Positions 26,915 through 51,932 of a DNA stretch of 64,000 nt are shown here, piece by piece. The notes below the pieces were generated by a model, which saw only the letters and a list, made by a program, of their open reading frames with translations, did not search any database and was not told the DNA's origin. The stretch is from an uncultured Planctomycetota bacterium (lineage in GTDB: Bacteria > Planctomycetota > Planctomycetia > Isosphaerales > Isosphaeraceae): NCBI GenBank assembly GCA_963823665.1, contig CAWGMQ010000004.1, positions 1,024,001 to 1,088,000 on the forward strand, written 5' to 3'. How positions within the stretch are numbered: position 1 is the first letter of the stretch; each line of letters opens with the position of its first letter. Both the position numbers and the translations under genes were made by a program.

Positions 26915-29900
26915 ATGAGCGAGCACGTCTTGGTGGACGAGAGTTTGGTCGGCCGGCTACCCCTTCCCTTGGCCCAGCTTGCGCGGCGGGTCCCGAACGC
27001 GAAAACTGCACTGGAGCGACACCTCGCGGCTTACCTCCTCTGGGAAGCGGGGCTAAAGCTGCTGGCCTCTGTCGCCATCGTGGAATATGCCGAGCGCCAG
27101 GACCCCGACGCCGCGCTGGCCGAACGTCTGCAGCACCTGGCGCGGCCGTCGCTCGGCCACTGGTGGGAGTTCGCGCGGCGGCTCCTTCCGGTGCTGGCTG
27201 AAGGGGATGACGAGGGCTTCCGAGCAGTCCGGGACCTGCTGCTGGGACGTACCCGCGACGATCTGCCTCGCGCCGCCGGGCTGGACGCGGCATTACTGGG
27301 AGCACTTGGAGAACGCGGCACCGCGCGTAGCACGGTTCGTCTGACCGAATTGTTCGATCGGATGGTCAGCTACCGCAACCGCGAGCTTGGCCACGGCGCG
27401 GCTGGGCAGCGGGCACCGGATTTCTACGATCGCATGGCTCGTGCGCTCTTGGCCGGGGTGTCGGAGGTGTTTGATCGACTGGATGTTCTGGCCGGTCGCC
27501 AGCTCGTCTATGTCGATGACGTCCGCCGGCTCGCGTCAGGTGACTGGCTCGTCGACCGTTACGAGTTGATCGGCGAATCGGCGAGACGGATCGAGTCGAT
27601 AACGGTGCCGGACGCGCAGTCCGCCACGTTGCCGTGTCCGCACCGAGTCTACCTCGAGCACCGGGGCGGGGCGTCCAGCACGCGTCGCTCGCTCCATCCT
27701 CTCGTTTGCTACCAGCTCGAAACCGGAAAAGTTTTCTTCTTGAACGGCCGCCGCGGCAAGCAGCGCGCTGAGTACCTCTGCTACGACGACGGAGACTTGC
27801 TGCGCCTTGATCTCGGTGCGGACCACCGGTCGCTGCTCGCCGGCGTACTCGGCCGGCCAGTCGACAGCGAGCTCGCCGCCCGATGGGCGACCGAGAGTAC
27901 GGCGGAGGACCCGCCCGAGGACCTCCCGCGGGCTCCACTTACCGAACGCACAGTCGGCGAGTTCGAGCTGCTGAGCCGGCTCGGCCGAGGAGGGATGGGC
28001 GTCGTGTACCGCGCCTGGCAGCCCTCGCTTTGCCGGCAGGTGGCGATCAAGTGCATGCTCCGGAGCGGCGACCCCAAGGCCGAGGCCCGGTTCGCCCGCG
28101 AGATCAGGGCGCTGGGGCGGGTCGAGCACGCCAACCTCGTGAAAGTTTTTACGTCCGGCTCGGAGGGCGACCAGTGGTTCTATGCCATGGAGCTGGTTGA
28201 GGGCGCCGAGCTTTCCGGCATCTGCGAACAGCTCGCCGGTCGCGAAGCCTCGGCCGTCGACGAATCGACCTGGCGCGATGCCTTGTCGTCGGCCCACGCC
28301 AAGGCCCGCTCGGGCGAGACCCCCCTGAGCGACGAACGGCGCGGTGCTTCTTCCGCTCTCGCTGACGAACCGCCACCCGCCGATTCCCCAGGCGCCGCCT
28401 CGCTCAATCTGCCCGCTCCCGGCGGCCGAGGCTATGTCCGCCGCGTCGTCGAGATCGTCGAGCGGGTTGCCGACGCTGCCCACGCCCTGCACGAGGCGGG
28501 TGTCGTTCACCGTGACATCAAGCCCGGAAATGTGATGATCACGGCCGACGGGCACACGCCGGTACTCATGGACCTCGGGCTGGCGCAGGTCGCCGACGAG
28601 ACCGAGGGCCGGATCACGCGCACCCGCCAGTTCATCGGCACGCTCCGATATGCCAGCCCTGAACAGATCCTTGCTGCCGGACAGGTGGACCGCCGCTCGG
28701 ATGTCTACAGCCTGGGCGCGACGCTCTGGGAGCTGCTCACTTTGAGGCCGCTTTTTGGAGCGACCGACGAAACACCCAGCCCTAACCTCATGCTCGACAT
28801 CCAGTCGAAGACTCCTGAGAGTCTCCGGAAGTACAACCCCCAGGTGCCCCGTGACCTTGAAGCCTGCGTGCTCAAGTGCCTCGAGAAGGACCGCGGCCGC
28901 CGCTATGCGACCGCCGCCGATCTCGCGGCCGACCTGAACAGGTTCCTCCGCGGCGAGCCGGTCGCTGCGCAACCGCCGAGCCTCGGCTACCTGGCGACCA
29001 AGTTCGTCAAGCGTCACAAGCTGCCGCTGGCCTCTGCGGCGGCAGTCGTCTTCATGCTTGCAGCCGGCGGCGCGATCGCTTTCTACCGGATTAACGAGGA
29101 GCGGAAAGACGCATTACGCGCCCGCAACAGCGAGGCAAACGCCAGGATCGAGGCCCAGAACCGCGCCAGGGAATCGAGCGCGCTGGCCGTCAAGAATAAA
29201 GACCTGGCCGAGCAGGAAAGCAAGGCGCGGCAAAGCGCCGTTCATCAGCTTCGCCTCTCCCGGCTGACCGCCTATGACATGCAGCTCGACCGCGCCGGAA
29301 AACTCCTGACAACCGACCCGGCGGCCGCGGCCCGATTGCTCATCGACAATGAGCAGTGCCCCCCCGATCTTCGGGACTTCGCCTGGGGACGGCTGTTGTC
29401 GCTGGCCCGGTGCTCGACCTGGGTCATCCGCGCCGACGACTCCCCCGTCAATCGCGTCGCTTGTGCGCCCCACGGGTTTCTCTTTGCTTCCGCCGGCGCC
29501 GACGGGACCGTTCGCCTCTGGAGCCCCGCAGAATCTTTGCACAAAGCGACGAAGACCTTCTCAGGCCATGAAGGGGCCGTCTGGTCCGTCGCCATCTCGC
29601 CGGATGCCCGGACTGCCGCCTCTGCGGGTCGCGACGGCACTGTCCGCCTCTGGGATTTGATCAAGGGGCACGCCGGCGCCGTTCTGCGTGGTCACGTGGG
29701 GGACGTAGCCGACGTGGTGTTCAGCCCTGACGGCAAGTCCCTCGCATCGGGCGGGCGTGACGGCACCGTGCGCGTGTGGGACGTCAATCGCGGTGTGCCA
29801 GTTGTGACCTTGCGGAATGATGGGGCGCCGATCCTCGGCATCGCATTTTCCCCAGCCGGCGGGTCGCTGGCAGCCTCAGGAGCCGACCGGGTCGTTCGGA

Positions 29901-32900
29901 TCTGGGACGCCGTGCGCAGAATAACGGGCGCCCCCCCTCAACGAGGGGAGCCCGAGGCCGCCAGCGGAATCGACGGTGGATCTGGCGGAGACCGGCCAGG
30001 CCGACCGGCGGCCCAGGTCGTCCGCGACTGGAAGCTGGACGATACTCGTGAGCGGTTAACAATCGCGGTCGAGGGTGCGCCGGTCGGGCCGCTTGCGTTC
30101 GCGCCGGACGGCTTTTTCTTGGCTGGCGGGGGCGTCGACCACGTTGTCCGGGTCTGGGAGTCGAGGACTGGTCGCGAGGCCGCAAAGTTGTCCGGACACG
30201 ACGGGCCGGTGACCGCACTTGCGTTCGCGCCCGACGCGGTGACGCTCGCCTCCTCAGGCGCCAGCGGCATCAAGCTTTGGAATACGGAGGGATGGCGCGA
30301 GATTGCGGTTCTGCGATCTTCGTCCGGCGAGAATCCGACGGCGCTGGCGTTCTCTGGCGATGGCGGGACGCTTCTTGCCGGCCACCGATCGGGCGGGTTT
30401 TCACTCTGGGACATCCCCGAACGGCGAGAGTGGCCGGGGTTCAGAGGCCACAAGAAGGAATTTCGGCGGGCCGTCTTCTCGCCCAACGGCGCGCTCCTGG
30501 CCGCGGGCCAATCCGACGGCGGAATTCGGCTCTGGGACTGCACGACCGGCGCCCCGATTCGGTCACTGAACGGACACACGCTGGCCGTGAGCGGACTCGC
30601 ATTTTCACCCGACGGCAAGGCTCTCGCATCGGCGTCTTACGACGGCACAGTCAGGCTTTGGGACGTGGATTCCGGCCGAGAACGCGCTTCATTGGTGATC
30701 ATTCCCTCGACCGCGAATGGCGAATCCTCGGCGCTTGCGGTTGCGTTTGCGCCCAACGGCAAGACACTGTCGGTCGCGGGCCAGGATGCGAAGATCCACG
30801 TGTTCGACGTGGAGACCGGTCGGGAAAGGGTTGCATTTCCAAAGAACCCGGGGGAGCAAGCGACCACGAAGCCACCCGCAAGCGAGGCCGCGCAGCCGCC
30901 CACTCCGTTACCTGCTCTCCCGGGCACAAGTCCGGCCTCGGTGAAACCAACTGCGGACTCTGAAGAGACCTTACGGCCTGAACAATTGTCGTCAGACCAG
31001 TTGCTTGAACACTTCAGAAAGCGCCGAGATGAGTCCCGCGACAGCCGCGACGACGCCATCGGCATTCTTCGACGGTTGCAGAACGTGATTCGCTCCGCCG
31101 CGCGAGTTGACGAGAGGTACCGCAACACTCTCGCCACCATTATCGGGTCTGAAATCCTTAACACTCAACGCTTACTCGTGAGTCGATGTCTGGGTTATGC
31201 TCCCGACGGCGGCGCCCTTGCTTCGGCGGACGGCAGGGGATTCATTCGGGTTTGGGCGTCAACCGGCGAATTGCTCGCTCAAGTTGGGCGCCAGCCTCAC
31301 GCAGCCGATCGGTTGGAATACTCGCCCGACGGCCGGCTCATCGCCGTTGGTGGTGATGATGGGGCCATTGTCCTCTGGAACCCGTTGGGGACAGGCGAGC
31401 AATTCCGGCTTCCGGGACGCTCTGGAGTGCAACCTTGTTTTTCGTTTGCACCCGATGGGCAGGCTTTCGCGTACCAGGCCGCCGATTCAGTGCGGGTGAT
31501 TGACGTTCAAACCAGGAACATCCTGTCCGTATTCACTGATCTAAACTGGGTCCGGGACCTGGCATTCGCACCCGACGGAACAACTCTTGTGGGGACGAGT
31601 GCGGCCCGCATCTTGGCCTGGAACCTCAAGGCGTCAACCGGAGAATCCACGCTCGCCGGTCACGTGGACGATGTTCGGGCGGTCGCGGCGTCGCCCAACG
31701 GCTGGATTGCAAGCGGCGACATCCGCGGGCGCATTCTGCTGTGGAGCGATTCGGGAGGTCTTGGAGCCGAGCTGACCAGTGGGCCGGACCTGTCGGGCAG
31801 CGATTCCGCGAGGGATGGGGTCGCCGGTTTGACGTTCTCGCCCTCCGGAAGTCTCATCGCGTCGAAGACTGAAAAAGGTGTGATCACGGTTTGGGACGTC
31901 GTCACCGGGCGCGCGTGCGCCAGGCTCGGTACGCTTTCTGACGAGCGTCTGGCACGAAACGATAGCGGCGCTTACCTGCGAAAACCCGCGCAGAGCACCC
32001 TTGTGTTCTCAGCAGACAGCCGACTTTTTGCCGCGACGAGCGGGGCAGGTCGAGTCTCTGTCTGGGACACGGCGACCTGGCGAGAGGTTAGCCTGGTAGG
32101 ACCACAATCGCGTCCTTTAGCTCTGAGCTTCGGCGCGGGAGCCACGACGCTCGTGGGCGCGTACGAAACGGGAGAGATCAACCGCTGGGACATTCCATCG
32201 CGCGAGCGCGCCAAGCTCCCATCCGGCCGGCCGGCCGGCGTCGCGGTCATCTCGCCTGACGGGAAGACATTGGCCGCGGGCCGAGACTCGTACGACGACA
32301 CGGCGGACGCCGTAACAGGTGTGCCAGGCGCATCAAAAGAGCTTGCGCCCCTTTTTCGGTGCGCGACCTGGCAACTGGCCGCGTGCTCGCCGAGGTCAAG
32401 CGTGCCGGTTGGGGTGAAGACGCACAAGCTCTTGCTTTCTCACCCGACGGCCGGCGGATCGTCGCCGCCTTGTCGAGTGGCGCGGTGGCGGTCTGGGATG
32501 CCGCGAACGGGGAAAAGGTGCTGAACGTTTCGATCGACCCGTTGACCGGTCGTGTGAGCTCGGTTGCGTTCGCGCCGGATGGGTCCACGATCATCACGGC
32601 CGGCCCGCTCAGCTCGGTCTATCGATGGGACGCCGCAACTGGAGAACAGCGGAGAAGCCTGCAGGGGCATACCGCCGCGGTGACTGCCGTTGCGTTTGCC
32701 CCGGACGGCGCCACTCTGGCCACAGCGGGATACGACTGGACGGCGCGGCTCTGGGACACCGCGACCGGCAGCCACCTTGCCACGCTCGCTTCGCACAACG
32801 CTCCGATCCGGGCGGTCGCCTTTTCGCGCGACGGCCTGTCTCTGGCGACATGCGGCGACGACGACCGGGTTCTCTTGTGGGATACTTCAACCGGCCGCGG

Positions 32901-34758
32901 CCGCGGCTCACTTCCCCCTGCGACCGGCGAGGCCAGGCCCAAAACCCTGGCCTTCTCCCCCGACGGCAAGACTCTGGTGACTGGCGCCGCCGATGGGATG
33001 GTGCGTCTGTGGAACTCGGCAACCCTACAGCCGCTCACGGGGTTCAAGGGGCGAAGCGCGATCAATGCCGTGGCATTCAACCCCGACGGCAGCACCCTGT
33101 TTGCTGCCGAACCTCAAGGCTCCGTGCACGCGTGGTCGATTCCCTCAGGTGAGCCGGTTGCCGGCCCAGCCTGGCCCAACACCACGCCCCAAGCGATGGT
33201 TCTCGACCCCTCGGGCCGATCGCTTGCCGTCGCACTTGCGGACGCAACTGTCCGACTCTGGGACGTCGCCGGCCGCGCGGAGATGCACACGCTTCGTGGC
33301 CACTCCGGTGCCGTCCTCGCTCTGGCGTTTTCGCCCGACGGGAAGAGCCTCGCGACTGCCGCCGCCGACCGCACAGTTCGGATCTGGGATGCTCTAGCGG
33401 GCCAGCTCCGCGGAACGCTGGAAGGCCATTCCGCTGCCGTGCTTGGTGTCGCATTCTCGCCCGACGGCCGCACTCTCGCTTCGGTCGGCGCCGATCGTGT
33501 TGTCAAGCTCTGGCGAGGCGTGCCAGGCCCGCAGCCGGCGATGTCGCTCGAGCACTCCGCGGGGGTAAACGCAGTCGCATACGCCCCCGACGGCCAAACC
33601 GTCGCCTCGGCCGGCTCCGACAAAGGCGTCATGCTCTGGGAGATCGCCCGGTTCAAGCCGCACGGCCCGGAGAACCCGCTCGCCCGGTCGCTCATGAACC
33701 CCTCCCACCGCCGGCACCGCGACCTACTCGCTGAGCGGACACGCGACTCCCGTCGCATCCTCGAAAAGCTCGAAGAGCCGATCTCGATGTCGTTCGTCGA
33801 AGAAACCCCGCTCGAGGACATTCTCAGGTACATCACGCAGGCGACTACAACCCCGACCTACAGCGGTATCCCGATCTATGTCGATCCAGCCGGGCTGGAG
33901 GAGGCTGAGAAGACAATGGCTTCGGCGGTACGCCAACTAGACATTGAAGACAGCCCGTTGAAAAGAACGCTGCAGTTGCTCCTCAGTCAGCTCGGTCTGA
34001 CATACCGCGTTGCCGACGGCCGGCTGACGATCACGTCCCAGAATCGGGGCGAGAAGATGTTCGGAGCGACCATCGAGGCTCCACGTCAAAGCGTCAACCT
34101 CGATAACCCGAGAGCTCGCAGAGTCATTAGCGTTCTAGAGCAACCAATCGAGATGAAGTTCGGATCAGGAGTTTCGCTTGAGGATCTTCTCAAGTACATC
34201 AAAACGGCGACGATAACCCCGACCTACAGGGGTATCCCGATCTACGTCGATCCAATCGGTCTGCAGGAGGCGCAGAAGACGATGAGGTCAGAGATCAAAT
34301 ACGACGCAGAAGGGGTGCCACTTCGTCAGTCGCTCTACGAGATACTCAAGCAGCTTCGCATGAGATACGTCGTTGGCGAGGAATTCGTCACGATCACTTC
34401 GGAGGAATCGGAACCGAATCGGAGAATACTTTCGGCCAGCAGCACAAACTGGATCCTCGATCAGCCAATCGAGTTGTCTTTCGTTGAACCGACAGCCCTC
34501 GGGGACGTCATCGAGGTCATCCGGGCCGCAACGAAAGGTCCAGACAGCGACGGGCTGGGCATTCTTTATTTTGGAGAGGTCGGCTCGCAAACCACCAAGG
34601 GCAGCTATGAATCAAAAGGCAAACCTTTGCGCGAGTCGCTCAAGGAGATACTCACGCCGCTGGGGTTGAAATACGTGGTTGAGGGCGCGAGCGTGCTGAT
34701 CGTTTCCGAGGAACAGGCAGGAGTGGTCGGCGCCCGTGGCAATTCGACGCCCAAGTAA
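26915..34758 (+). CDS. giant membrane Ser/Thr kinase: HEPN-like N-domain, kinase, TM, many WD40 repeats, 3 STN-like domains (frameshift near 32350)
   Basis: GRGGMG, VAIK, HRDIKPGN, DLG, SPEQ; TM LASAAAVVFMLAAGGAIAFY; GH...WD repeats continue across the frame change at a C4T5 run. Confidence 0.9.
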
Positions 34759-34848
34759 TACGTAGGTACCGTGTGGGGGCCGCGAGACGGTTTGCGACAC
34801 ACTCCCAGCGAAGGAGCTGTTGACGCTCGGCCCGCTCAAGCAGACGAA

Positions 34849-35706
34849 TCAGCCTCGGCCGTTCGGCTCGGTCAAGACCGTGTAAAACCCCGGTCGCCGG
34901 TCGGCGATTCGGTTGATCTCGTGCCGCCCCGGCACGCGGACCAGCCGTTTCTTTCGAGCGAGTGCCGGGTCGATCTCGGCGAAGAGTGTCTCCTCGGAAT
35001 CGGGCCCGGCCTGGGCCAATCGGCGGCCCGTCGGGTCAACGATCGAGCTCAAACCGATGAACCGGAACCCGCTTTCTTCGCCGACGCGATTCACGGCCAT
35101 CACGTAGACGGTGTTTTCCATCGCGCGGGTGGGGATCATGTGCTCGGCCGCGCATTCGGAATGCGTGGGCCAGTTTGTGGGCAGCACCAGGAGATCGGCA
35201 CCCAGCAGCGACATGACGCGAGCAGGCTCGGGAAAGGCGCCGTCATAACAGATGTGCATACCCACCTTGATGCCGCCGGCGTCGTGAACGGCAAAGGGTG
35301 AGTCGCCGGGGTCGGCGAACATGTCGATCCCGAGATACGGCAGGTGAACCTTGCGGTAGGTGGCGACCACACCCTCCGGGCCCATCAGTATGCACGCGTT
35401 GAACAACCGGCTGCCGTCGCGTTCGAGCAGACCGAAAATGCAGTAACAATCGCGCTTCCGGCAGGCGGCTGCCACACGCGCCACGGGCGCGCTATCGAGG
35501 GTTACGGCATGTGCCATGCCTTCCTCGCGCGACGCGAAGCCGTAGCCGGCCAGGGCGCATTCCGGGAAGACGACAAGACGAGCGCCCTCGCGCGCGGCAT
35601 GCTCGATGCGATCGAGAATTCGCTCAAGATTGACTTCGATCCGCCCGAGCTTCGGCTCCATTTGAACCGCCGCCACGCGGACCCTGGCAGGGCGCTCGTC
35701 CTCCAA
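34849..35706 (-). CDS. carbon-nitrogen hydrolase (nitrilase superfamily)
   Basis: FPE, YRKVHL and ICYD give the Glu-Lys-Cys triad. Confidence 0.92.
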   Translation of the reverse strand: MEDERPARVRVAAVQMEPKLGRIEVNLERILDRIEHAAREGARLVVFPECALAGYGFASREEGMAHAVTLDSAPVARVAAACRKRDCYCIFGLLERDGSRLFNACILMGPEGVVATYRKVHLPYLGIDMFADPGDSPFAVHDAGGIKVGMHICYDGAFPEPARVMSLLGADLLVLPTNWPTHSECAAEHMIPTRAMENTVYVMAVNRVGEESGFRFIGLSSIVDPTGRRLAQAGPDSEETLFAEIDPALARKKRLVRVPGRHEINRIADRRPGFYTVLTEPNGRG

Positions 35707-35723
35707 GATAGCACCTCGATCTT

Positions 35724-37202
35724 TCAGTCCAGCTTGATCGTGACGGTTTTGAGCTCGGTGTAGCGCTCGAGAGCGGCCTCGCCGTTCTCGCGGCCCTGAC
35801 CCGACATCTTGAAGCCGCCAAACGGGGTCGTCGTATCGACAACATGGTAGCAGTTCACCCAGACAGTGCCGGCCTTCACCTTCCTGGCGTAGAGGTGCGC
35901 CTTGTTGATGTCCTTGGTCCAGATGGCCGCCGCCAGTCCGTATTGGGTGCGATTGGAGCGATCAATGACTTCATCGACGCCCTTGAACGGAAGCACACTC
36001 ACGACCGGGCCGAAGATCTCGTCCTTGGCGATCGCCATGTCGTCCTTGACGTTGTCGAAAATCGTGGGCTGCACAAAGAAGCCCTTGGATCCGACGCGCT
36101 CGCCGCCGGTGAGGAGCGTTGCTCCTTGTTTTTCGCCGAGCCGGACGTAGTGCAGGATCTTGTCGAGCTGTTCCTCGGAGACCTGTGGGCCCTGCTGGGT
36201 CTTGGGATCGAGCGGGTCACCGACCTTGCGGCTCTTGGCCTTCTCGGCGAGGCGTTCGACAAACTCGTCGTGGATTTTGTTCTCGACGAAGAGCCGGCTG
36301 CCGGCCGTGCAGCACTGGCCGCCGTGGAAGTAGATCGCGTGGAACGCGCCCTCGACTGCGGCGTTCAGATCCGCGTCGGCGAACACGACGTTGGGGCTCT
36401 TGCCGCCCAGCTCAAAGCTTGTTCGCTTGAGTGTGTCGGCGGCGGCTTTCTGGATGATCTTGGCCGTATCCACGTGCCCGGTAAATGCGATCTTGTCGAC
36501 GTCGGGGTGGGTGACGATGGCGGCGCCGGTTGTTTCACCCATGCCGTTGACGATGTTGAGCACGCCGGGCGGGAAGCCTGCTTCGCGGGCCAGCTCGGCC
36601 ATGCAGAGGGCCGTCAGCGGAGTTTGCTCGGCCGGCTTCATGACGACCGTGTTGCCGCAAGCCACGGCCGGGCCCCACTTCCACGCGAGCATCAAGAGCG
36701 GGAAGTTCCAGGGGATGATCTGGCCGACGACGCCGACCGGCTGGCGCAGGGTATAAGAAAGGAAGTTGCCGCGAACCGGCACGGTGCGGCCCTCGACCTT
36801 GTCGGCCCAGCCGGCGTAGTAGCGCAGGGTGTTGGCGACGCCGACCATGTCGCCCTTCGAGTCGTTGATTGTTTTGCCGCAGTTGAGGGACTCAAGCGCC
36901 GCCAGCTCTTCGGCCTTCTGATCGACGAGATCGGCGAGCTTGAAAAGCAGCCGGCCGCGGTCGGCGGCGTCCATGGTGCTCCAGGGACCGGATTCCAGGG
37001 CCTTCCGCGCGGCCTTCACGGCTTTGTCGACGTCGGCTTTCTCGGCCGCGGCAACCTTCGCCAGCACCTCGCCTGTGGCGGGATTGATCGTCTCGAAGTC
37101 ACCACCGTCGACCGGGTCAACCCACTTGTTGTCTATGAAGAGCTTCGTGAAAGGAATCTTGGTCTTGGGCTTGCTCGGAGCGGCCGCAGTTTTGGTGGGC
37201 AT
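35724..37202 (-). CDS. NAD(P)-dependent aldehyde dehydrogenase
   Basis: PWNFP, KPAEQT, FTG, ELGGKS, GQCCTAG and EIFGP. Confidence 0.97.
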   Translation of the reverse strand: MPTKTAAAPSKPKTKIPFTKLFIDNKWVDPVDGGDFETINPATGEVLAKVAAAEKADVDKAVKAARKALESGPWSTMDAADRGRLLFKLADLVDQKAEELAALESLNCGKTINDSKGDMVGVANTLRYYAGWADKVEGRTVPVRGNFLSYTLRQPVGVVGQIIPWNFPLLMLAWKWGPAVACGNTVVMKPAEQTPLTALCMAELAREAGFPPGVLNIVNGMGETTGAAIVTHPDVDKIAFTGHVDTAKIIQKAAADTLKRTSFELGGKSPNVVFADADLNAAVEGAFHAIYFHGGQCCTAGSRLFVENKIHDEFVERLAEKAKSRKVGDPLDPKTQQGPQVSEEQLDKILHYVRLGEKQGATLLTGGERVGSKGFFVQPTIFDNVKDDMAIAKDEIFGPVVSVLPFKGVDEVIDRSNRTQYGLAAAIWTKDINKAHLYARKVKAGTVWVNCYHVVDTTTPFGGFKMSGQGRENGEAALERYTELKTVTIKLD

Positions 37203-40620: not shown

Positions 40621-40632
40621 TGCACCACCGAT

Positions 40633-41686: not shown

Positions 41687-41750
41687 TGCGACCAGCATGA
41701 TCGGCACGCAGTTGGTGATCATGATGATGGGTCCGGGAGACTAAAACGGT

Positions 41751-42000: not shown

Positions 42001-42023
42001 AATTCTGTTACGTGGACAATTCG

Positions 42024-42320: not shown

Positions 42321-42530
42321 GCGATACGCCAGGAGCTGAGCGCTGGCGTTCCCACGAAACCAAAACTGGAAAACGTGGTCGAGACAGTCGATGCCGATGC
42401 AATCCACCAGCCATCACGGCCCCTTCATTCGGCCGGAGGCCGTGCGCTCATAGTCATAGGTCACGACACCGCCCGCCCGGCGGATCGCAGCTACGCCTTC
42501 GCGCTGCTGCCTCAAAACGGCCACACCACA
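42321..42530 (-). pseudogene. N-terminal remnant of an LRR gene paralog
   Basis: QREGVAAIRRAGGVVTYDYE...GP*WLVDCIGIDCLDHV aligns with QREAVAGILRAGGVVGYDYE...GPRWLVDFMGIDYLDHV. Confidence 0.8.
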
Positions 42531-42591
42531 AAGGTCCTCGCGACACCTGTGATTCTTGCCAGCCCGGTCCATTTTCCTCAGGCGGCACCCG

Positions 42592-43668
42592 ATGCACCGG
42601 CAACTCATTCGAGCGGTTGTTCTCGCGACGATCGCGTTCACGCATGTTTCCTCGATCCGCGCCGGCGACCTCACGATCACCCGTGTCTTCGGCCCGGAAA
42701 TCCCCACCGGCCCCTACAAGCACCCCGCCAGCATGACCGAGCTCGCGAACGGCGACCTCTACCTGGTGTACTACGGCGGAGAAGGCGAATACGCGATCGA
42801 AACGGCCGTCTTCGGCTCCCGGCTCAAGAAGGGCGAAGCAAAGTGGAGCGATCCCAAGCCGATCGCTCGCGACCCGTTTCGCTCGGTCGGCAACGGCGTG
42901 ATCTGGGAAGCTCCCGACGGCGGCGTCTGGCTCTTTTACGTCGTTCGGTTCGGCGAGACCTGGTCGAACTCGCGCGTGCAGGTCAAGATCTCACGCGACG
43001 GTGCAGAAACCTGGTCCGACGCGTCCGTGCTCTCGCTCGAAGAAGGAACCATGGTGCGCAACCGGCCCATCGTCCTCTCAGGCGGCGATTACCTGCTGCC
43101 GGTCTACCACGAAACCGGGCACGATCCCGAAAAGGTCGGTGCCGACAGCACGTCGCTCTTCTTACGCTATCAGCCTGCGAAGCGGGCCTGGACCAGAACC
43201 GGCCAGATCCGTTCGCCCAAAGGCAACATCCAGCCCGCTGTCGTTGAGCTCCAAGCCAACCACTTGATCGCCTACTGCCGCCGCGGCGGAGACTACGATC
43301 CAAAGACCATCGGCTACATCGTCCGGGCTGAGTCCTCGGACGGGGGGCTCACGTGGAGCGAAGGCAAGGATTCCGCTTTTCCCAACCCGAACGCGGCCGT
43401 CGAATTCCTCAAGCTCAAGAGCGGCCGGCTGCTGCTCATCTTCAACGACAGCATGACCCGGCGCACGCCGCTCGCCGCCGCGATCTCGGAGGATCAGGAC
43501 CGCACCTGGACGTCGCGCCGGAATATCCGCGAAGGTGAAGGCGACTTCGGATATCCGAGCGCGTTTCAAGCGCGCGACGGGCGGATTCACCTTGTGTTCA
43601 CGTCCGAGAGACGCACCGTCGTCAATCATGCCTTGTTTGATGAAGAGTGGGTCATTCACGGTCATTGA
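42592..43668 (+). CDS. exported BNR/Asp-box (sialidase-like) protein
   Basis: Signal peptide; SRDGAETW, SSDGGLTW, SEDQDRTW and GYPS. Confidence 0.88.
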   Translation: MHRQLIRAVVLATIAFTHVSSIRAGDLTITRVFGPEIPTGPYKHPASMTELANGDLYLVYYGGEGEYAIETAVFGSRLKKGEAKWSDPKPIARDPFRSVGNGVIWEAPDGGVWLFYVVRFGETWSNSRVQVKISRDGAETWSDASVLSLEEGTMVRNRPIVLSGGDYLLPVYHETGHDPEKVGADSTSLFLRYQPAKRAWTRTGQIRSPKGNIQPAVVELQANHLIAYCRRGGDYDPKTIGYIVRAESSDGGLTWSEGKDSAFPNPNAAVEFLKLKSGRLLLIFNDSMTRRTPLAAAISEDQDRTWTSRRNIREGEGDFGYPSAFQARDGRIHLVFTSERRTVVNHALFDEEWVIHGH

Positions 43669-43682
43669 GACGAACAGGACCG

Positions 43683-44005
43683 ATGCGAAATCAGACCTAT
43701 TTTGCGATTCTGGTCGTGGCAACCGGCGGCCTCATCGACGGTTGGGCGGTCGATACCTCTGCGCAAGCGGCGCGCGAGGCGCCCGAGATCAAAGCGGGCT
43801 GGCGATTCGCGCGGTGTGGACCGCGATCTCCGGCATGCAAGACGTCTCCGGCGGCGTCTTGTGGTCGTGGGCCGATTACAACCACAGGCTACCATTCAGG
43901 TCGCTGGGACCGTTCGGGGCCTTCGGCGCGGTCACAATCGACCGCAAGCCAAAGGCGGCTTTGAAGGCCCTGTCTGCGATGTACGGCGGTGCGCTCGAAA
44001 ACTGA
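43683..44005 (+). pseudogene. GH2-like glycoside hydrolase remnant with large internal deletion
   Basis: Signal peptide plus GWRF joined out of frame to the GH2-type C-terminus GGVLWSWADY...FGAVTIDRKPKAA. Confidence 0.6.
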
Positions 44006-44110
44006 CAGAAAAACGAGATTTCGAGCTCATGAACCGTGAGTTGCTGCGTCTTGTGCCGTGTTCGACGAAGATTGGGTGCTTCGCGGCCGCTGAGCGGTGT
44101 TCCAGGTAGA

Positions 44111-45763
44111 TCATTTGCGTTTCAGAGCGATGCGTCGGATCTGGACCTCTTCGTAGGGGCGGGTCTGGAGCCGGAATTCCTTGATTTGATCGGGGGGCTG
44201 ACCGAACTCGACTACAAGCTGCTGGAAGTTCATCACACCCGAACCCGACCGGATCTCCGCCGGGAGCTCGTTGCCGTCCAAGTCGACCGCGACGATTCGC
44301 ACTGGCTTGTCCTGAACGTTATGAGTCACCGCTATCAGCGTTCCCTTCTCGGTTGCGATTGCCCGACTGAAGATGTAGCTCGGACCGACGCTGCGGCCGA
44401 CAGCGCCTTGATTCTTCCCCCAGGTCCGCTCGGTCTTCCAGGGACCGGCCGCGACCTTGAAAAGAACCGTGCAATCGGCTGCATCAGCCGGGAGCAGGGC
44501 GGTCATCTCGGTCAGACCGGGTAAGGGTTGGCCGTTTCGCGTCGCAGGCCCCCAGGCTGCTCCCTGGGACTCGGTGATCGACCATGTATGGTCTGCTCCG
44601 TCGGGAATGCGGGCCAGACGCACGACAACCAACATACGCACGGCATTCTCGCCGGAGATTCTCGGCTCGCTCGGGTCGCATGGTGCTTGATGGAGCGGCG
44701 TTCCATCGGGACGCCACCAGGTATCGGGGCCGGAGGGGAACGTGGAAATACCGACGACCTCGATGATTGCTCCGTTGGGCAAGCTCCGGACCCAGCGGCG
44801 ATCGCCTGCTGGCTTATCGTTCGGTTTTTCGGCTGGCTGAACGGCAGTCTGCGGAGACTGCGGCGTCTGAATTCCCCCGGGCACAGCCTGCTGCGACACG
44901 GCCTGGGCCGTCACGCCCGCGACGACCAGAGCGCCCGCCGCGGCCAGCTTGAGCTTTTTCCACATCATCATCTTGAGGACTCCTTCGGTGAGATCGGTCA
45001 CTGCCGCCGGGAACGCACCGGTGGCGCACGCTGTTGCCGCGCGGGCCGTGGCTTGAGCAAGCTCCAGTGGAACAGCAGCCCGGGATTGGGCGGTGAGGGC
45101 AGTGGCCATGCCGACTGCGACTGCGCCCGGCGCGAGGCCACGCTGCGCCAGTCTCTGCCGCAGCCTGAGCCGGCCCCTGGTCAGGCGGCTCTTGACTGTG
45201 GCGACCGGCCATTTGAGCTGGCGCGCCGCAAGGTCGTACGTCATGCCCTGAAGGTGACAGAGCTCGACCGGGCATCGGTATTTTGCCGGCAGCCGTTCAA
45301 GCTCCTCACCGACGGCGCGGCGGAGGTCGCTGAGCTCCAGCTCGACCGAGGGATCGCCGGCCGACGCAGGCGGAACCCGGCCGATCCCGGACTTTCGTCG
45401 CTCGGCCCGGGACCGTGCTCGAAGCGCGACGCGGTGGGCGACGCCGTAAAGCCAGCGGCCGAGGGAGCCGTCCACGCGCACCGATCCTGCCTTACGGACA
45501 AGTACGAGGAAGGTGGCCTGGAAGGCGTCCTCCGCCTCGTGGGCATCTGCCAGCACGCGGTGGCACACTCCCCAGACCATCGCTCCGTGACGATCCACCA
45601 AGGCCTCGAACGCCATCTCCGCCGCTGCCACAACTTCAGCCGACTCGGCGCGCCTGGCCTTGTACTGCTCGAGGAGCTCGCTGTCGGTGAGCCCGGTCGC
45701 CGTCCCACCCGCAAACAGGGCTCGCAATTGCCGTAACGCGGAGCCGGGTTGGCCTTTTCCCAT
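44111..45763 (-). CDS. ECF sigma-70 factor with TM and C-terminal extension
   Basis: FEALVDRHG, AEDAFQATFLVL, WLYGVA (region 2); LPAKYR...TVKSRLTRGR (region 4). Confidence 0.92.
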   Translation of the reverse strand: MGKGQPGSALRQLRALFAGGTATGLTDSELLEQYKARRAESAEVVAAAEMAFEALVDRHGAMVWGVCHRVLADAHEAEDAFQATFLVLVRKAGSVRVDGSLGRWLYGVAHRVALRARSRAERRKSGIGRVPPASAGDPSVELELSDLRRAVGEELERLPAKYRCPVELCHLQGMTYDLAARQLKWPVATVKSRLTRGRLRLRQRLAQRGLAPGAVAVGMATALTAQSRAAVPLELAQATARAATACATGAFPAAVTDLTEGVLKMMMWKKLKLAAAGALVVAGVTAQAVSQQAVPGGIQTPQSPQTAVQPAEKPNDKPAGDRRWVRSLPNGAIIEVVGISTFPSGPDTWWRPDGTPLHQAPCDPSEPRISGENAVRMLVVVRLARIPDGADHTWSITESQGAAWGPATRNGQPLPGLTEMTALLPADAADCTVLFKVAAGPWKTERTWGKNQGAVGRSVGPSYIFSRAIATEKGTLIAVTHNVQDKPVRIVAVDLDGNELPAEIRSGSGVMNFQQLVVEFGQPPDQIKEFRLQTRPYEEVQIRRIALKRK

Positions 45764-45941
45764 AGTCGTGCGTCCCGCCGTGATGTTCGATGCCATCCTC
45801 ACTACTATGCACGAAGTCACGCTGACGGACCTGATTTTTTTCCAGCGTCCCCGAAACCCTTCGGCCCGGCGGCCTCGTAGAAACTTCCATCAGGGCGCGG
45901 TGTTTAATCCTTCAGATGAGCTTCATGCCGAGGAGAACGTC

Positions 45942-46607
45942 ATGCGTACCATCGGAATGCTACTGCGGGCGATTGGGAATACATCGTTGATCCTGGCGGC
46001 CCTGGCTTTGCCGGCCGGCTTGGCCCAGGCCAAGGGAGGCCATGGCGGAGGACACCACGGCGGGGGTGGACACCATGGCGGTGGCGGCGGACATCGCGGC
46101 GGGGGTGGGCACCATGGCGGCGGTGGCGGACATCACGGCGCTGGGCACTCGGGACGCGCCGCCCACCGTGGAGGCGGTGCCCATCACTCTTCAGCCGGTC
46201 ATCGCGCCGCCGCCGCACACCACTCAAGTAATCGTCGCGGCTCAGCTCAAATCGCGAGGACGAGCTCTAACCACAATAATGGCAACTCTGCGTCGCGATC
46301 GCACACCTTCAACAACTTTGGCGGCACGAGCAACTCGGCGAGCGTGAACTTGTCGCGCAACAATCGGGCACATGCCGGCGGCGGATTCGGAGCACCGGGC
46401 ATTGGAGCCCTTGGCTCGAATCTTGGTGAGGCAGGGGGCTATAGAGGCTCCGGCTATGGATATGGTAACGGCGGGGGCTACGGCTACGGCAACCGGGGGT
46501 ATGGCTACGGTGGGGGATATGGAAATCGAAACTCCGGGTACGTGAGGGCGTACATCCCGGGAGTCGGGTGGGTGATGGTTCCGATTCGGGCCATCCGGCG
46601 GTTTTGA
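45942..46607 (+). CDS. exported Gly/His-rich low-complexity protein
   Basis: Signal peptide ending AQA, GGHHGGGG repeats, GYGYG repeats. Confidence 0.7.
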   Translation: MRTIGMLLRAIGNTSLILAALALPAGLAQAKGGHGGGHHGGGGHHGGGGGHRGGGGHHGGGGGHHGAGHSGRAAHRGGGAHHSSAGHRAAAAHHSSNRRGSAQIARTSSNHNNGNSASRSHTFNNFGGTSNSASVNLSRNNRAHAGGGFGAPGIGALGSNLGEAGGYRGSGYGYGNGGGYGYGNRGYGYGGGYGNRNSGYVRAYIPGVGWVMVPIRAIRRF

Positions 46608-46895
46608 GATTGTTAAGGTCTTCCACCGCAGGGTCTCTGGGCCGGGCGCGCGTCTCGGAGAACCTGCGCCCGACATTCAGGATCTCTGGGCCGTGCGTGC
46701 AAGCGGATCGCCGGGCGGAGCCGGCTCCAACAGGCATGGGCGTGGGGCAGTCGTCCTTGTTGGAGGGGGCTCTGTCCCCCGATCTTCGCGGTTGGGGCTC
46801 AGGCGCGCTGGGGATAGCGTAAACCGCCGAATTCTGCTCGCCGCTGCCCAGTTGTGTTCCCAGAGCGCCGGATCGTGTCCGGTCGCGGGCGATTC

Positions 46896-49800
46896 TCACG
46901 GCCTCTTTTCGTCCTGAACGGCTTGAAGCTCGGTTTCGGGAACGACCCGGTCCTCCAACGTCGCCTGGAACAGTCCGGGAGCGATCCGGAAGGTTAGGAG
47001 CTTACCATTCCGGAGGATGATGAGCTCCTTCGGCTTTTCGGCAGGGCTTTGACGGCGTCTTGCGTCGATGAATCTGGACGCATTGATGACGTCCTTCTTG
47101 TCATACGTCATCAGGATGTCGCCTCCCTTCAACCCGATCCGCTCTCCCCGACCGCCCGGGTTGACCTCGGTGATAATCGCCCTGCACCGAACGGGCTTGC
47201 CTTCTTGATCGAAGTAGGTCGAATCTGTTCGATTGCCGTGGTCATCGTACATGTTGACGACCTTGGCGTAGCCATGCTTATGCCGCGCCGGCTTGCCTGC
47301 CTCGTCGAAGTAGGCTGTTTCGATCAGGTTGCCGCGGTCGTCGTACTCGTTGGCGACCTTGGCGCAGCCGTTCTTGCTACGCATGGGTTTGCCTGATTCG
47401 TCGAAGTAGGCCCTCTCGATCAGGTGGCCGCGAGCATTGTACTGGGAGGTGACCTTGGCATAGCCATCGTTGGTGCGCGCCGGCTTGCCCGATTCGTCAA
47501 GGTAGGCTTGCTCGACCACATTCCCTCGACCGTCGAGAGTTTGGGTGATGGCAGAGTAACCCCGAACGCCCGCTTCGTACCCAAAAATCGCCTGCCGGAC
47601 TTTTCGGCCCTTTTCATCATAGGCCATCGTCACCCGCGTGAACTCGTTTCTGAACCGCACCGGCTTGCCCGTTTCGTCGAAGTAGGCCTGCTCGATCTGG
47701 TGATCCTGGTGATCGTATTCGGCGGCGAACTTGGTGTAGCCGTCTTTGTGTCGAGTGGGGCGGCCAGCCGCGTCGAAGTATACTTCTTCGATCCGGTTAT
47801 CGCGGTCGTCGTACCGGATGGTGAACCTGGCGAAGCCGTCCTTGAGCTGCACCGGCTTGCCCGCTACGTCGAAGTAAGCTGTGTCGATGAAGTTGCCGCG
47901 GTCATCGTACTTGTTGGTGATCTTGGCGAAGCCGTCCTTGACCTGCACCGGCATGCCCGACTCGTCGAAGAACGACGTCTCCGTTCGGTTGCCGCGTGCG
48001 TCGTAGCTGGCAGTGGACTTGGCGAAGCCGCTGTCAGTCTCGACCGGCTTGCCCGACTCGTCGAAGTAGGCCTCCTGAATCCGGTTGCCGCGCTCGTCGT
48101 ACCGGAGGGTGAACTTGGCGTAGCCGCCCTTGATCTGGACCGGCTTGCCCGACTCGTCAAAGTAGGCTTCCTCGATCCGGTTGCCTTGGTCGTCATACTT
48201 GGCTGTGAATTTGGCGTAGCCGCCCTCGATCTGGACCGGCTTGCCCGCCTCGTCGAAGTAGGCCTCCTCGATCCGGTTGCCTCGGCCGTCAAACTTGGCT
48301 GTGAACTTGGCGTAGCCGCCCTTGATCTGGACCGGCTTGCCCGCCTCGTTGAAGTAGGCCTCCTCGATCCGGTTGCCTTGGTCGTCATACTTGGCTGTGA
48401 ACTTGGCGCAGCCGTCCTTGATCTGCAGCGGCTTGCCCGCCTCGTCGAAGTGGGCCTCCTCGATCCGGTTGCCACGGTCGTCATACTTGGCTGTGAGCTT
48501 TGCGTAGCCATTCTTGTGCCGAGTGGGCCGGCCTGATTCGTCGAAGTAGGCGGCCTCGTCCGCTTGACCACGCTCGTTGTACCTGGCGGTGAATTTGGCG
48601 TGGCCATCCTTGTGCCGAGTGGGCCGGCCTGATTCGTCGAAGTAGGCAGTCTGGTCCGCTTGACCACGCTCGTTGTACCTGGCGGTGGATTTGGCGTAGC
48701 CATCCTTGTGCCGAGCGGGCCGGCCGAATTTGTCAAAGTAGGCAAATTCGATGGCGTTGCCGCATTCATCGTACTGCGCGGTGACCTTGGCGTACCCGCC
48801 CTTGGTCAGCGTCGGTTGGCCGGCCCCATCGAAATACTTTTCCTCGACCAGGTGGCCACGGTCATCGTACCGGGCAGTGATCTTGGCATAGCCGTCTTTG
48901 TTCCGCGTAGCCTCGCCCGCGTCGTCCAGGTACGCCGTCTCGATCCGGTTGCCCCAGTCGTCGTACAGGATGGTGAGCTTGGCGTAGCCGTACTTGCTGC
49001 GAACCGGCTGGCCCGACTCATTCAAGTAGGCCTGTTCGATCAGGTTGCCAGCGTCATCGTACTTGGCGGTCAACCCGGCGAAGCCGTCCCTGCTCAGAAC
49101 CGGCTGGTCATGCGGCCCGAGAAACGTCATTCGCACCCACCAACCATGGGCATCAAATTCCTGATGCTTCCCGTAGATCCCGTCCCGATTCGGTCGACGA
49201 GCATTTCCATTGATATCATAGAATTTAATCTCTTTCGCGAGCCCCCGATCGGAGAGTTCGAATCTCACAAAGCTTGCCTCAGAGCCGGGTACGGCGAACG
49301 TCGATCCCCGCGCGTCGGTGAAATGAGCCGAATCTTCTGAAGTGTAGATAAATTTGAATACAATTCCTCCGGACCGATCCAGGGCTCTTTCCTCGGTCAA
49401 CTGACCTTTCTCGTCGAATCGGTAAATATACGAGCATTCACGCTTGGCCTGCGTCGCATCGTCCCGACTGCCGATATACGTGTCGACCGGGTGCCGCGTT
49501 GTCAACTGGCCGTGTCCGTTGACGACGTCGACCCGCTCCACGCGGCCAGCGCGACGATGAAACTGCAGGGTGTACTGACGGTGGTGGGCCTGTTCCGCGG
49601 TCAGGCGGCCGATCCCAACCGGAATACCCCAGCGTTTCTCAAAGTCCCGGTAGTACTCGATTCGCTCGCGATGAAAATCCCAGTAGGCAAAACCAGCCCC
49701 CAGGACCAGGGAGACGAGCAGGCAGCCCAGCGTCGCCATCGCCGCTGGCAACGGCCGTCGCCGTGCCCATCTCAGGGTGCGACCGAGCGAGCCGACCGGC

Positions 49801-51932
49801 CGCGCCTTGACCGGCTCGCCGACGAGGAAATGACGCAGATCGCCGGCCAGATCGGCGGCGGTGGCGTAGCGGTGGTCCGGTTTCTTTTCCAGGCACTTCG
49901 CGACGATCGCTTCCAGGTCCCGCGGGATCCCCGGGTGAAAAGTGCGCACCCGCTTGGGCTCTTCCAGGACAATCTGTCTCTGCAGCAGGTAGTCCGGCGT
50001 GGACTCCGACGCGCCGTAGAGAGCTCGAAGCGTCAGCAGCTCCCAGAGCACGGCTCCCAGACTATAGACGTCGGTGCGGCGATCGACCTTGGCGGAATCC
50101 AGGATCTGCTCCGGGCTCGAGTACCGCAATGTGCCGACAAACTTGGTGGTCAGGTTCGGTTTGTTCTGCTTGTCGAGCTCGTCGACGAGCTGGGCCAGGC
50201 CCAAGTCCATCAGAACCGCCTGCGTGCCGTCGGCCGTCACCACCACGTTGCCCGGCTTGATGTCGCGGTGAATCACGCCGGCCTGATGCAGCGCATGGGC
50301 CGCCTGGGCGACCTGGCGGACCAGCTCGGCGACCTCTTTGACGTAACCCTGCCGGGCAGGGGCTTGGGTCGGGACGGATGGATGCAGAGAGTCGGCACGC
50401 GACGGGGCCGGCCTGGTGGCGGTCGCCTGGTGATCGCTCAGGGACTGCTCCTCCTTCCGCGAATCCTCGCACGCCTTGCTCAGCGACTCTCGCCAAGTGC
50501 CCAGGTCGAGTCCGGCCGCGCTCGCGCTGCGGGAGTGGAGCGCCCGGCAGAGGGCGGCCAGCGTCGCCCCTTCGGCCAACTCCATCGCGTAGAACCACTG
50601 GTCTCCGTCCACGCCCGAAGTGAAGACCTTGACCACGCTCGGGTGCTCGACCTTGCCCAGAGCGTGGATCTCACGGTCGAACCGCGCCTCGGCCTTGGGG
50701 TCGCCGACTCGGAGCAGGCACTTCAGCGCCACCTGCCGGCCCAAGGACGGCTGCCAGGCTCGATAGACCTTCCCCATGCCCCCGCGGCCCAAGACGCTGA
50801 GCAACTCGAACTCGCCCAGCCGGCGCGGCGGCGGCTCATCCGTGTTCGGGGACGGCGATCCCTGCGGCTCTCCAGCCACCGACTGGTCGGCCCACGCCGC
50901 GACCTGGTCGCTGGCGATAGCGCAGCCCAGAACCCGCGCCAGCAGCGCGCGGTGTTCGGCGCCCAGGTCCGGGCGATCGATTATCGCGCCCGAGATGTAT
51001 CCCAGGTATTCGATTCTTGACCGGCCGCGCCGCGCGTTCAGGAAGAACATCTCCTCCTTGGCGGGATCATATTTCACCATTGGGTGAACGGACCGCAGCG
51101 CCAGAACGTCGGGGCGAGCGGGGAGGCTGGATTTCCCGGGATCCTCGGGTGGTGGGGGATCCTCCACGGAATCGCGGAGAACCGGTGCGTCGAGGTAGAC
51201 ACGCTTGGGCAGCGGCAGTAGGTGAGCCTCCCGCTCGGGCCGCTCAACGGGTTTCAGGGAACGTGGGGCCTCTCCGGTCAGGGCGAGTCGTTCGATGACC
51301 CACGCTCCATCCTCGGCGCGCTCGACAGCCGACACGTACACAAGGCGATACCCTGCCAGCACGTCCAGATGCCCGAGCAACTCGCCCACTCCGGCGAGGA
51401 TCGCTCTACCCATCTGCTCGTCCGACTCCGACGGTCTTACTCCCATGACACCATGGCCGGTCGTCTTGTTTCGGTATTGCACCAATCGCTCGAACAAATC
51501 GCTGACGCGGACTGTACTGTGGGCACCCGCTGCGCCGCCCAGGAATTCGCGCAAGGCCGCATCGAGTGCGGCAGCCCGTGGCAGGTTGCTCCGTGAGCTG
51601 CCCAGGACCAGGTCGCGGACCGCTCGGAACGGCTCGTCGCCGGCGTCGGCGAGGGCAGGGACAAGCAGCCGAACGTACTCCCACCAGTTTCCCAGGGCGG
51701 GACGCGCCAGGCTCGTGAGCCGTTCGGTCAAGACCGGATCGTGCTCGCTTCGCTCGGCATAGGCCACGATCGCCACCGAGCCCAGTAGCTTGAGGGACGC
51801 TTCCCAGAGGTAGTAGGCCACCAGGACTCGCTCGAGCGGCGTCTTGGCATCGTGGGCGCGGCGATGAAGCTGCGCCAGCGGCAACGGGAGGCGCCGGACC
51901 AGTTCTTCATCGGGAGTCAGGTAGCCACTCAT
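46896..51932 (-). CDS. membrane Ser/Thr kinase: HEPN-like N-domain, kinase, TM, ~21 YD-type repeats, PDZ
   Basis: GRGGMG, VALK, HRDIKPGN, DLG, SPEQ; TM ATLGCLLVSLVLGAGFAYW; PDZ-like VNPGGRGERIGLKGGDILMTYD. Confidence 0.92.
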   Translation of the reverse strand: MSGYLTPDEELVRRLPLPLAQLHRRAHDAKTPLERVLVAYYLWEASLKLLGSVAIVAYAERSEHDPVLTERLTSLARPALGNWWEYVRLLVPALADAGDEPFRAVRDLVLGSSRSNLPRAAALDAALREFLGGAAGAHSTVRVSDLFERLVQYRNKTTGHGVMGVRPSESDEQMGRAILAGVGELLGHLDVLAGYRLVYVSAVERAEDGAWVIERLALTGEAPRSLKPVERPEREAHLLPLPKRVYLDAPVLRDSVEDPPPPEDPGKSSLPARPDVLALRSVHPMVKYDPAKEEMFFLNARRGRSRIEYLGYISGAIIDRPDLGAEHRALLARVLGCAIASDQVAAWADQSVAGEPQGSPSPNTDEPPPRRLGEFELLSVLGRGGMGKVYRAWQPSLGRQVALKCLLRVGDPKAEARFDREIHALGKVEHPSVVKVFTSGVDGDQWFYAMELAEGATLAALCRALHSRSASAAGLDLGTWRESLSKACEDSRKEEQSLSDHQATATRPAPSRADSLHPSVPTQAPARQGYVKEVAELVRQVAQAAHALHQAGVIHRDIKPGNVVVTADGTQAVLMDLGLAQLVDELDKQNKPNLTTKFVGTLRYSSPEQILDSAKVDRRTDVYSLGAVLWELLTLRALYGASESTPDYLLQRQIVLEEPKRVRTFHPGIPRDLEAIVAKCLEKKPDHRYATAADLAGDLRHFLVGEPVKARPVGSLGRTLRWARRRPLPAAMATLGCLLVSLVLGAGFAYWDFHRERIEYYRDFEKRWGIPVGIGRLTAEQAHHRQYTLQFHRRAGRVERVDVVNGHGQLTTRHPVDTYIGSRDDATQAKRECSYIYRFDEKGQLTEERALDRSGGIVFKFIYTSEDSAHFTDARGSTFAVPGSEASFVRFELSDRGLAKEIKFYDINGNARRPNRDGIYGKHQEFDAHGWWVRMTFLGPHDQPVLSRDGFAGLTAKYDDAGNLIEQAYLNESGQPVRSKYGYAKLTILYDDWGNRIETAYLDDAGEATRNKDGYAKITARYDDRGHLVEEKYFDGAGQPTLTKGGYAKVTAQYDECGNAIEFAYFDKFGRPARHKDGYAKSTARYNERGQADQTAYFDESGRPTRHKDGHAKFTARYNERGQADEAAYFDESGRPTRHKNGYAKLTAKYDDRGNRIEEAHFDEAGKPLQIKDGCAKFTAKYDDQGNRIEEAYFNEAGKPVQIKGGYAKFTAKFDGRGNRIEEAYFDEAGKPVQIEGGYAKFTAKYDDQGNRIEEAYFDESGKPVQIKGGYAKFTLRYDERGNRIQEAYFDESGKPVETDSGFAKSTASYDARGNRTETSFFDESGMPVQVKDGFAKITNKYDDRGNFIDTAYFDVAGKPVQLKDGFARFTIRYDDRDNRIEEVYFDAAGRPTRHKDGYTKFAAEYDHQDHQIEQAYFDETGKPVRFRNEFTRVTMAYDEKGRKVRQAIFGYEAGVRGYSAITQTLDGRGNVVEQAYLDESGKPARTNDGYAKVTSQYNARGHLIERAYFDESGKPMRSKNGCAKVANEYDDRGNLIETAYFDEAGKPARHKHGYAKVVNMYDDHGNRTDSTYFDQEGKPVRCRAIITEVNPGGRGERIGLKGGDILMTYDKKDVINASRFIDARRRQSPAEKPKELIILRNGKLLTFRIAPGLFQATLEDRVVPETELQAVQDEKRP
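47187..49185 (-). repeat. ~21 x 96-bp coding repeat (32 aa, GYAKxTxxYDxxGNxIExAYFDExGKP)
   Basis: Counted in the translation; 96-bp period visible, e.g. 48205 and 48301. Confidence 0.93.

Follow-up and report, generated by a model that had tools for sequence, protein, structure and literature searches.

Candidate receptor kinase-ribonucleases with a HEPN-like N-terminal domain in a soil planctomycete

The subject of this work is a pair of large genes in a 64,000-nucleotide stretch of a soil planctomycete genome of the family Isosphaeraceae (positions 1,024,001 to 1,088,000 of contig CAWGMQ010000004.1, hereafter the window). The genes, A on the forward and B on the reverse strand, are separated by about 12 kb, and each starts with a common N-terminal module of approximately 340 amino acids, followed by a protein kinase, a membrane segment and long repeat arrays (Table 1). 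The first half of this module has the predicted layout and the motifs of the HEPN superfamily and, on balance, we consider it probable that A and B are receptor kinase-RNases whose HEPN head serves as the RNase effector. The domain layout, predicted fold, motif positions, conservation and architectures presented here all come from computation. The module has no match in Pfam, NCBIfam or PADLOC at E ≤ 10, and no description of the family was found in the literature searched.

The two proteins are paralogs over residues 1–769, with 407 of 769 residues identical (53%, E = 0, BLASTP), and are unrelated beyond this point. The common N-terminal domain pointed out in the original prediction for this DNA is therefore real, and the segments RLPLPLAQL, WEAxLKLL and LARPxLGxWWE are found in both. 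Each carries a Hanks-type kinase (Pkinase, E 9e-38 in A and 3e-38 in B) with the Gly-rich loop GxGxxG, VAIK/VALK, HRDIKPGN, DLG and SPE motifs, from which both kinases look catalytically intact. Directly C-terminal of the kinase there is, in both, one strongly hydrophobic stretch, so that the claim of an intact Hanks kinase plus one transmembrane (TM) helix also holds. With a single TM segment after the kinase, the N-terminal 700 residues are therefore predicted to be cytoplasmic and the repeats extracytoplasmic. These repeats are many WD40 propellers in A (Pfam) and RHS/YD-type repeats in B (Pfam RHS_repeat, E 4.7e-6), the latter ending in a sub-threshold PDZ-like part.

Predicted fold and conserved motifs of the module

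The AlphaFold2 (AF2) model of the module, obtained with an alignment of 84 sequences, has a predicted local distance difference test (pLDDT) of 93.3 and a predicted template modelling score of 0.93 (from the single sequence the pLDDT was 38.8 and the model unusable). It comprises an all-helical domain (helices within residues 9–188), strands between 195 and 290, and closing helices at 301–329. The elements of the helical part are a helix at 17–28, helix 2 (32–59), an insert formed by four helices (60–142), helix 3 (143–161) and helix 4 (168–188). The beta-barrel half was absent from the description given in the original prediction. A homodimer prediction with two copies of residues 1–335 gave an ipSAE of 0.02 (mark 0.42), which is no evidence either way.

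As described in passages of PMC3710099 (Anantharaman et al. 2013), HEPN domains are four-helix up-down bundles whose second and third helices are often separated by an insert. Helix 3 closes with an Rx4-6H motif that extends into the loop before helix 4, the residue following R being usually N, D or H, and another conserved acidic position lies in helix 2, most often within an Ex3[KR] motif. The model reproduces this topology, placing E44-x3-K48 ('WEAGLK') inside helix 32–59 and R154-N155-R-E-L-G-H160 at the C-terminal end of helix 143–161. The fold check proposed beforehand thus returned a helical domain with the HEPN layout, and the segments YRNRELGHG (A) and YRNKTTGHG (B) stand where they had been reported, at residues 153–161 of each protein. 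The conserved Glu, which had been assigned to an N-terminal helix, sits instead in helix 2. As modelled, the helical domain has the motifs and the topology that define HEPN and is outside every Pfam HEPN family.

The residues of both motifs are the most conserved polar positions of the module. In an alignment of 169 family members with 340 columns, R154 ranks 1st, E44 4th, H160 6th, N155 8th and K48 18th. We scored 145 representatives (five of 150 were omitted, their best matched stretch being shorter than 250 model positions), together with a divergent set of 22 open reading frames (ORFs) from other genomes of the phylum. The latter were aligned from a scan of 29 loci (L039 left out), excluding L034 and L038 as spurious or fragmentary and L040, L042, L043 and L044 as extra loci of the same genomes. 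R154 was kept in 145/145 representatives and 21/22 divergent ORFs, H160 in 143/145 and 21/22, N155 in 141/145 and 20/22, and E44 in 142/145 (two of the three misses are N-terminal truncations) and 22/22. K48 appears as K in 138 and as R in 2 of the 145 representatives, and as K or R in 21/22 of the divergent ORFs. Conservation of E, R, N and H, named beforehand as a check on the HEPN reading, is thus borne out across the family.

Relation to HEPN families and to Ire1

Structural comparison of the helical part returned HEPN proteins with modest scores. Foldseek with the module model against PDB and BFVD gave nothing at E ≤ 1e-3. VIA, a structure search independent of Foldseek, covered 48,161 PDB representatives, and among the 50 matches listed 15 span the helical part; HEPN proteins make up 7 of these 15, at modest Z, and the best of them is Roquin, whose HEPN domain is known as an RNA-binding scaffold rather than an RNase. 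Re-ranking of structural matches against PDB covered the barrel matches only. At the sequence level, phmmer against PDB produced only 3r5y_A (E 0.038) and a profile search only a designed Kelch-like protein (E 0.19), while alignment A1 returned kinases only, because it includes kinase columns. The nearest ESM Atlas clusters of the module were unnamed hypotheticals of ~300 amino acids (0.95), with EAD11 and SAM at 0.80. For residues 1–195 the named clusters were uninformative, and one with RnlA-toxin_DBD on 11% of its members (0.77) can be taken as a lead only.

The nearest HEPN group is that of HEPN_MAE_28990 (PF18737) and HEPN_RiboL-PSP (PF18735). By hmmscan, 0/44 members of the module family exceeded the gathering cut-off of either; a single member gave values of E 0.052 for HEPN_MAE_28990 (14.2 bits vs a cut-off of 26.8) and E 0.064 for HEPN_RiboL-PSP (13.6 vs 28.4), both marginal matches falling on the RN..H segment. 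Proteins of these two families gathered from genomes of the same phylum, which carry 'hWEGxxK' and 'RNxxAHG' motifs, were then used as hhalign targets. Against 8 of them the helical part scored 20.7 (P 0.033; maximum of 30 column shuffles 18.2), and against 19 it scored 35.0 (P 1.7e-4, probability 49%, 136 columns; maximum of 30 shuffles 12.6), in an alignment running from E44 through helix 4 with both motifs aligned. All controls had P ≥ 0.24 (reversed HEPN alignment 0.26, beta part 0.73, kinase 0.33). Removing three motif-less rows to leave 16 proteins gave P 1.2e-3, and a broader query alignment brought no improvement (P 0.015–0.041). The profile-profile signal for HEPN appears to be real, yet it is weak and depends on the alignment.

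In both the module and this group, helices 2 and 3 of a four-helix core are separated by an insert, helix 2 contains an aromatic-E-x3-K ('WEAxLK' vs 'hWEGxxK') and helix 3 ends similarly ('RNxxxGHG' vs 'RNxxAHG'). The module differs in its Rx5H spacing instead of Rx4H, in a much longer insert of about 80 amino acids with four helices, in its fixed C-terminal small beta-barrel, and in being nearly always fused to a membrane Hanks kinase. The term HEPN-like is fairly well supported for the helical domain because the fold model, the motif positions, their conservation, the profile-profile match and the fusions to TIR and STAND proteins (see below) all point to it. The HEPN-like assignment of the original prediction was to this extent strengthened, by the helical model, the motif conservation and structural matches dominated by HEPN proteins, these last at modest Z.

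Ire1 and RNase L combine a kinase or pseudokinase with a KEN domain, which is a HEPN RNase. The likeness to A and B lies in a protein kinase and a HEPN-type domain in one polypeptide and, for Ire1, in a single-pass membrane protein with its sensor across the membrane. The order of domains, however, is reversed, the HEPN-like domain of A and B being N-terminal to the kinase with the barrel and a linker in between, and kinase-controlled dimerisation is, for A and B, a proposal. No Ribonuc_2-5A (KEN) similarity was detected in the module at E ≤ 10 (Pfam). KEN is a circularly permuted HEPN, listed as eukaryotic in passages of PMC3710099. Judged from its sequence, the module is not a KEN domain: it lacks Ribonuc_2-5A similarity and permutation, and it precedes the kinase instead of following it. 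'Ire1-like' therefore describes an analogy of function with a mirrored architecture and not family membership, and the same applies to the Ire1/RNase L-like label proposed earlier.

The remainder of both proteins resembles known planctomycete Ser/Thr kinases, which passages of PMC11032199 describe as having a cytoplasmic Pkinase domain, a single TM helix and, on the predicted periplasmic side, long WD40 arrays; this kinase-TM-repeat arrangement of WD40/TPR membrane kinases is the same as in A and B. In the main-text passages of this Pfam-based survey no N-terminal module is mentioned, and 'RNase' and 'novel domain' have 0 occurrences.

Architectures of the module family and its possible function

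A full HMMER scan with the N-terminal module alone against 1.84 billion cluster representatives recovered 1051 of them at E ≤ 1e-3, 730 at E ≤ 1e-10 and 301 at E ≤ 1e-30. They are mostly Planctomycetota kinases, and those with a source name are assigned to Planctomycetes, Gemmataceae or Isosphaeraceae. Among the 150 representatives listed, 146 have the module starting within their first 35 residues and 130 contain a Hanks catalytic-loop motif. A Pfam scan of 16 proteins, which included 13 of the 20 without this motif, identified a kinase in 6 of the 20. When the phylum was sampled evenly, the module turned up in 23/301 genomes and 19/238 genera, but in none of the 15 genomes that represented family f2 (same class).

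The module also appears outside kinases, as revealed by Pfam searches of unusual members. It is fused to TIR_2 (P0142), to an AAA_35 STAND-type ATPase (P0119) and to TIR plus AAA_35 (P0125), all three retaining E, R and H, and it follows DUF4062 in P0144, where the His is replaced. Other kinase-bearing arrangements are TIR-module-kinase (P0129), module-FHA-kinase (P0117) and kinase-module-kinase-PDZ (P0114). The metagenomic protein P0004 (1412 aa) has three tandem modules and a very divergent fourth, and recalls proteins with paired HEPN domains. Its copies read YRTNEIATG, YRSRVLHGAG, YRNQGIVHG and LRNDLIKRT, the RN..H motif having degenerated in all but the third; a search seeded with the fourth copy had a single match, P0263, which carries no annotation.

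In conflict systems, effectors including HEPN are placed N-terminal to TIR and STAND ATPases, and HEPN RNases are listed among the effectors of inactive-STAND systems (both in passages of PMC8195603). The position of the module N-terminal to AAA_35 STAND-type ATPases and beside TIR is similar to that of the effector-STAND proteins treated in parts of PMC8195603 and PMC7159879. In contrast to these, the modules of the window sit on receptor kinases without evident defence-island context. Their neighbours are an RND efflux pair, a nitrilase, an aldehyde dehydrogenase, leucine-rich repeat and BNR proteins, an ECF sigma factor and a VIT-VWA protein, and the neighbourhood is not a defence island.

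Putting these elements together, A and B would be single-pass membrane receptor kinases with a cytoplasmic N-terminus and a repeat-rich C-terminus outside the cytoplasm, headed by a putative HEPN-superfamily helical domain with both active-site motifs intact plus a small beta-barrel. We infer that this head could act as a metal-independent endoribonuclease effector. A ligand would cluster the periplasmic sensor, made of WD40 units in A and of YD repeats in B, and the clustered kinases would trans-phosphorylate. The N-terminal HEPN heads, brought together in this way, would cut cytoplasmic RNA, possibly held by the barrel, so that RNase activity would depend on dimerisation and be under the control of both the neighbouring Hanks kinase and the clustering of the sensor. 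As a result of RNA cleavage growth may stop, or a defence or stress response may follow. A more ambitious formulation, which we put forward tentatively and hold to be possible but not probable, is that of an independently assembled bacterial counterpart of Ire1. It would be a receptor kinase-RNase family of more than 1000 members in which ligand sensing by WD40, YD or TPR repeats leads to clustering, kinase activation and RNA cleavage by HEPN, the same HEPN-barrel head being used on TIR/STAND immune-type proteins.

The main competitor of an RNase effector is a domain derived from HEPN that has no catalytic role, an explanation we judge rather unlikely. The head would then be a regulatory module binding RNA, a nucleotide or a protein, or a homotypic adaptor (the 'EAD principle'), which controls the kinase or links kinases to TIR/STAND proteins, with phosphorylation as the only output. 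The match to Roquin is in line with this, and the sharing of one head by kinases, TIR proteins and STAND ATPases is the pattern of adaptor domains (passages of PMC8195603). It would also fit the genomic clusters of paralogs (three in tandem at G229:C292, three at G150:C4 and the two here, 12 kb apart) and the ECF sigma factor gene ~1.1 kb downstream of gene B. Nevertheless, the near-invariant catalytic-type E, K, R, N and H in divergent members are more typical of enzymes, and adaptors appear in the same source passages as small modules fused to separate effectors, whereas this module has 340 amino acids. The motif decay in some of the tandem copies of P0004 also speaks for catalysis, being expected if one active copy suffices.

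It is less probable still that the domain is not HEPN at all, but a lineage-specific four-helix bundle plus barrel in which R-N-x4-H and Ex3K serve kinase regulation, ligand binding or some other chemistry. The published description of HEPN is matched by the two motifs, the helix positions, the insert after helix 2 and the last helix; moreover, 7/15 of the helical matches listed by VIA are HEPN proteins, and the hhalign score exceeds all 30 shuffles and three negative controls. Short R...H motifs are frequent by chance, and one could imagine such a resemblance within an ordinary conserved linker of two recent paralogs. This is hardly credible for a family of more than 1000 representatives with a confident fold, in which the motif residues are the most conserved polar columns, and chance resemblance is excluded.

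If the head is indeed an active RNase, Planctomycetota would have a large class of transmembrane kinase-RNases that pass a signal from outside the cytoplasm straight on to RNA cleavage, a route described so far, to our knowledge, only for Ire1 of eukaryotes and for RNase L as a soluble version. Planctomycete kinases are very numerous, and many of them would gain a function for the first third of their sequence, which now lacks annotation. The HEPN superfamily would acquire a further family, one with a permanently attached barrel, and receptor-kinase signalling would be tied to the TIR/STAND toolkit of conflict systems.

Gene layout, frame change in gene A and surroundings

Table 1. Coordinates of genes A and B, of their features in the window, and of degraded relics elsewhere in the same genome
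Feature	Position	Strand	Details
Gene A, first open frame	26915..32524	+	1869 aa; N-module, kinase, TM, WD40 propellers
A, HEPN-like helical domain	26915..27484	+	residues 1-190; AF2 model, VIA, hhalign
A, Ex3K motif	27041..27058	+	W43-E44-A-G-L-K48, helix 2
A, Rx5H motif	27371..27397	+	Y153-R154-N155-R-E-L-G-H160-G161, end of helix 3
A, small beta-barrel domain	27497..27814	+	residues 195-300
A, two helices and linker to kinase	27815..27934	+	helices 301-329; AF2 model
A, Hanks-type kinase domain	27965..28912	+	residues 351-666 (K379, D534); ~90-aa insert; Pfam
A, sole TM segment	29021..29092	+	residues 703-726; hydrophobicity
Gene A, continuation in another frame	32359..34758	+	799 aa; more WD40 blades and three ~100-aa C-terminal repeats
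Gene B	46896..51932	-	1678 aa; N-module, kinase, TM, YD/RHS-like repeats, weak PDZ-like end
B, HEPN-like helical domain	51363..51932	-	residues 1-190
B, Ex3K motif	51789..51806	-	WEASLK
B, Rx5H motif	51450..51476	-	YRNKTTGHG, residues 153-161
B, beta-barrel part of module	50958..51350	-	~22-aa insert relative to A
B, Hanks-type kinase domain	49863..50807	-	residues 376-690 (K404, D557); Pfam
B, sole TM segment	49674..49757	-	residues 726-753; hydrophobicity
B, YD/RHS-like repeat array	47253..49565	-	~32-aa units, predicted extracytoplasmic; Pfam, repeat positions
Relic	C5:1578274-1578960		frameshifted, internal deletion
Relic	C3:1590515-1590979		fragment
Relic	C5:689132-689278		first 46 residues matched only; 60-aa open frame

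The original prediction overlooked a frame change in gene A, which it had read as one frame up to 34758. The first frame closes at 32524, its last ~55 residues being no longer WD40-like, and the WD40 sequence picks up again in a different frame (ORF 32359-34758). The switch takes place at or near the run CCCCTTTTT, at about 32345-32358 (window positions 32340-32360), and could be a homopolymer error of the assembly or a real frameshift or pseudogene; an intact gene A would encode a single protein of ~2610 aa. Four soil-metagenome runs (X1-X4, two studies) contain short contigs of this stretch, none of which covers the site (32322-32383), so that they speak neither for nor against the frame change. 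No RNA dataset is listed among the public runs with contigs of the gene A stretch. Three soil-metagenome runs of one study (X1-X3) contain short contigs at least 99% identical to 31800-32900, and the organism or a near-identical strain therefore occurs in soil samples.

At its C-terminus (33700-34758) gene A ends with three ~100-aa repeats of the form LE.PI...F...L.D.L..I, which have a weak, sub-threshold match to the Amuc_1098 family of type IV pilus outer-membrane proteins (E 1.8e-5, 23 bits vs a cut-off of 750). The array of gene B consists of about two dozen ~32-aa repeats (GYAKxTxxYDxRGNxIExAYFDExGKPV), carried here on a kinase.

The genome (16.5 Mb) holds two intact copies of the module, those of A and B, and degraded relics. 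One locus (L005, C5:1576954-1580451) is a degraded third member, with an N-terminal module that has lost residues ~45–100 and kept YRNDVIGHG; its kinase runs on in other frames, and a FGE-sulfatase-like ORF adjoins it on the opposite strand. Tandem or clustered paralogs were also seen in other genomes of the phylum, at L018, L041 and neighbours (G229:C292:11183-19938), at G150:C4 and at G168:C1, with one contig carrying three consecutive members of ~1270–1290 aa. This clustering suggests a lineage-specific expansion.

Two ORFs next to the kinases (46309-46899 and 34771-35301) were rejected as genes, their translations being low-complexity or antisense-like and without family matches. The ECF sigma factor gene (44111-45820, reverse strand) is on the same strand as gene B; an operon link between the two was considered, but they lie ~1.1 kb apart. 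Its product is membrane-anchored, with sigma70 r2 and r4 regions (residues ~70–225) followed by a hydrophobic segment and a ~260-aa C-terminal domain. On the other side, the gene for the VIT-VWA protein (832 aa, 52236-54734, forward strand) is divergent from gene B.

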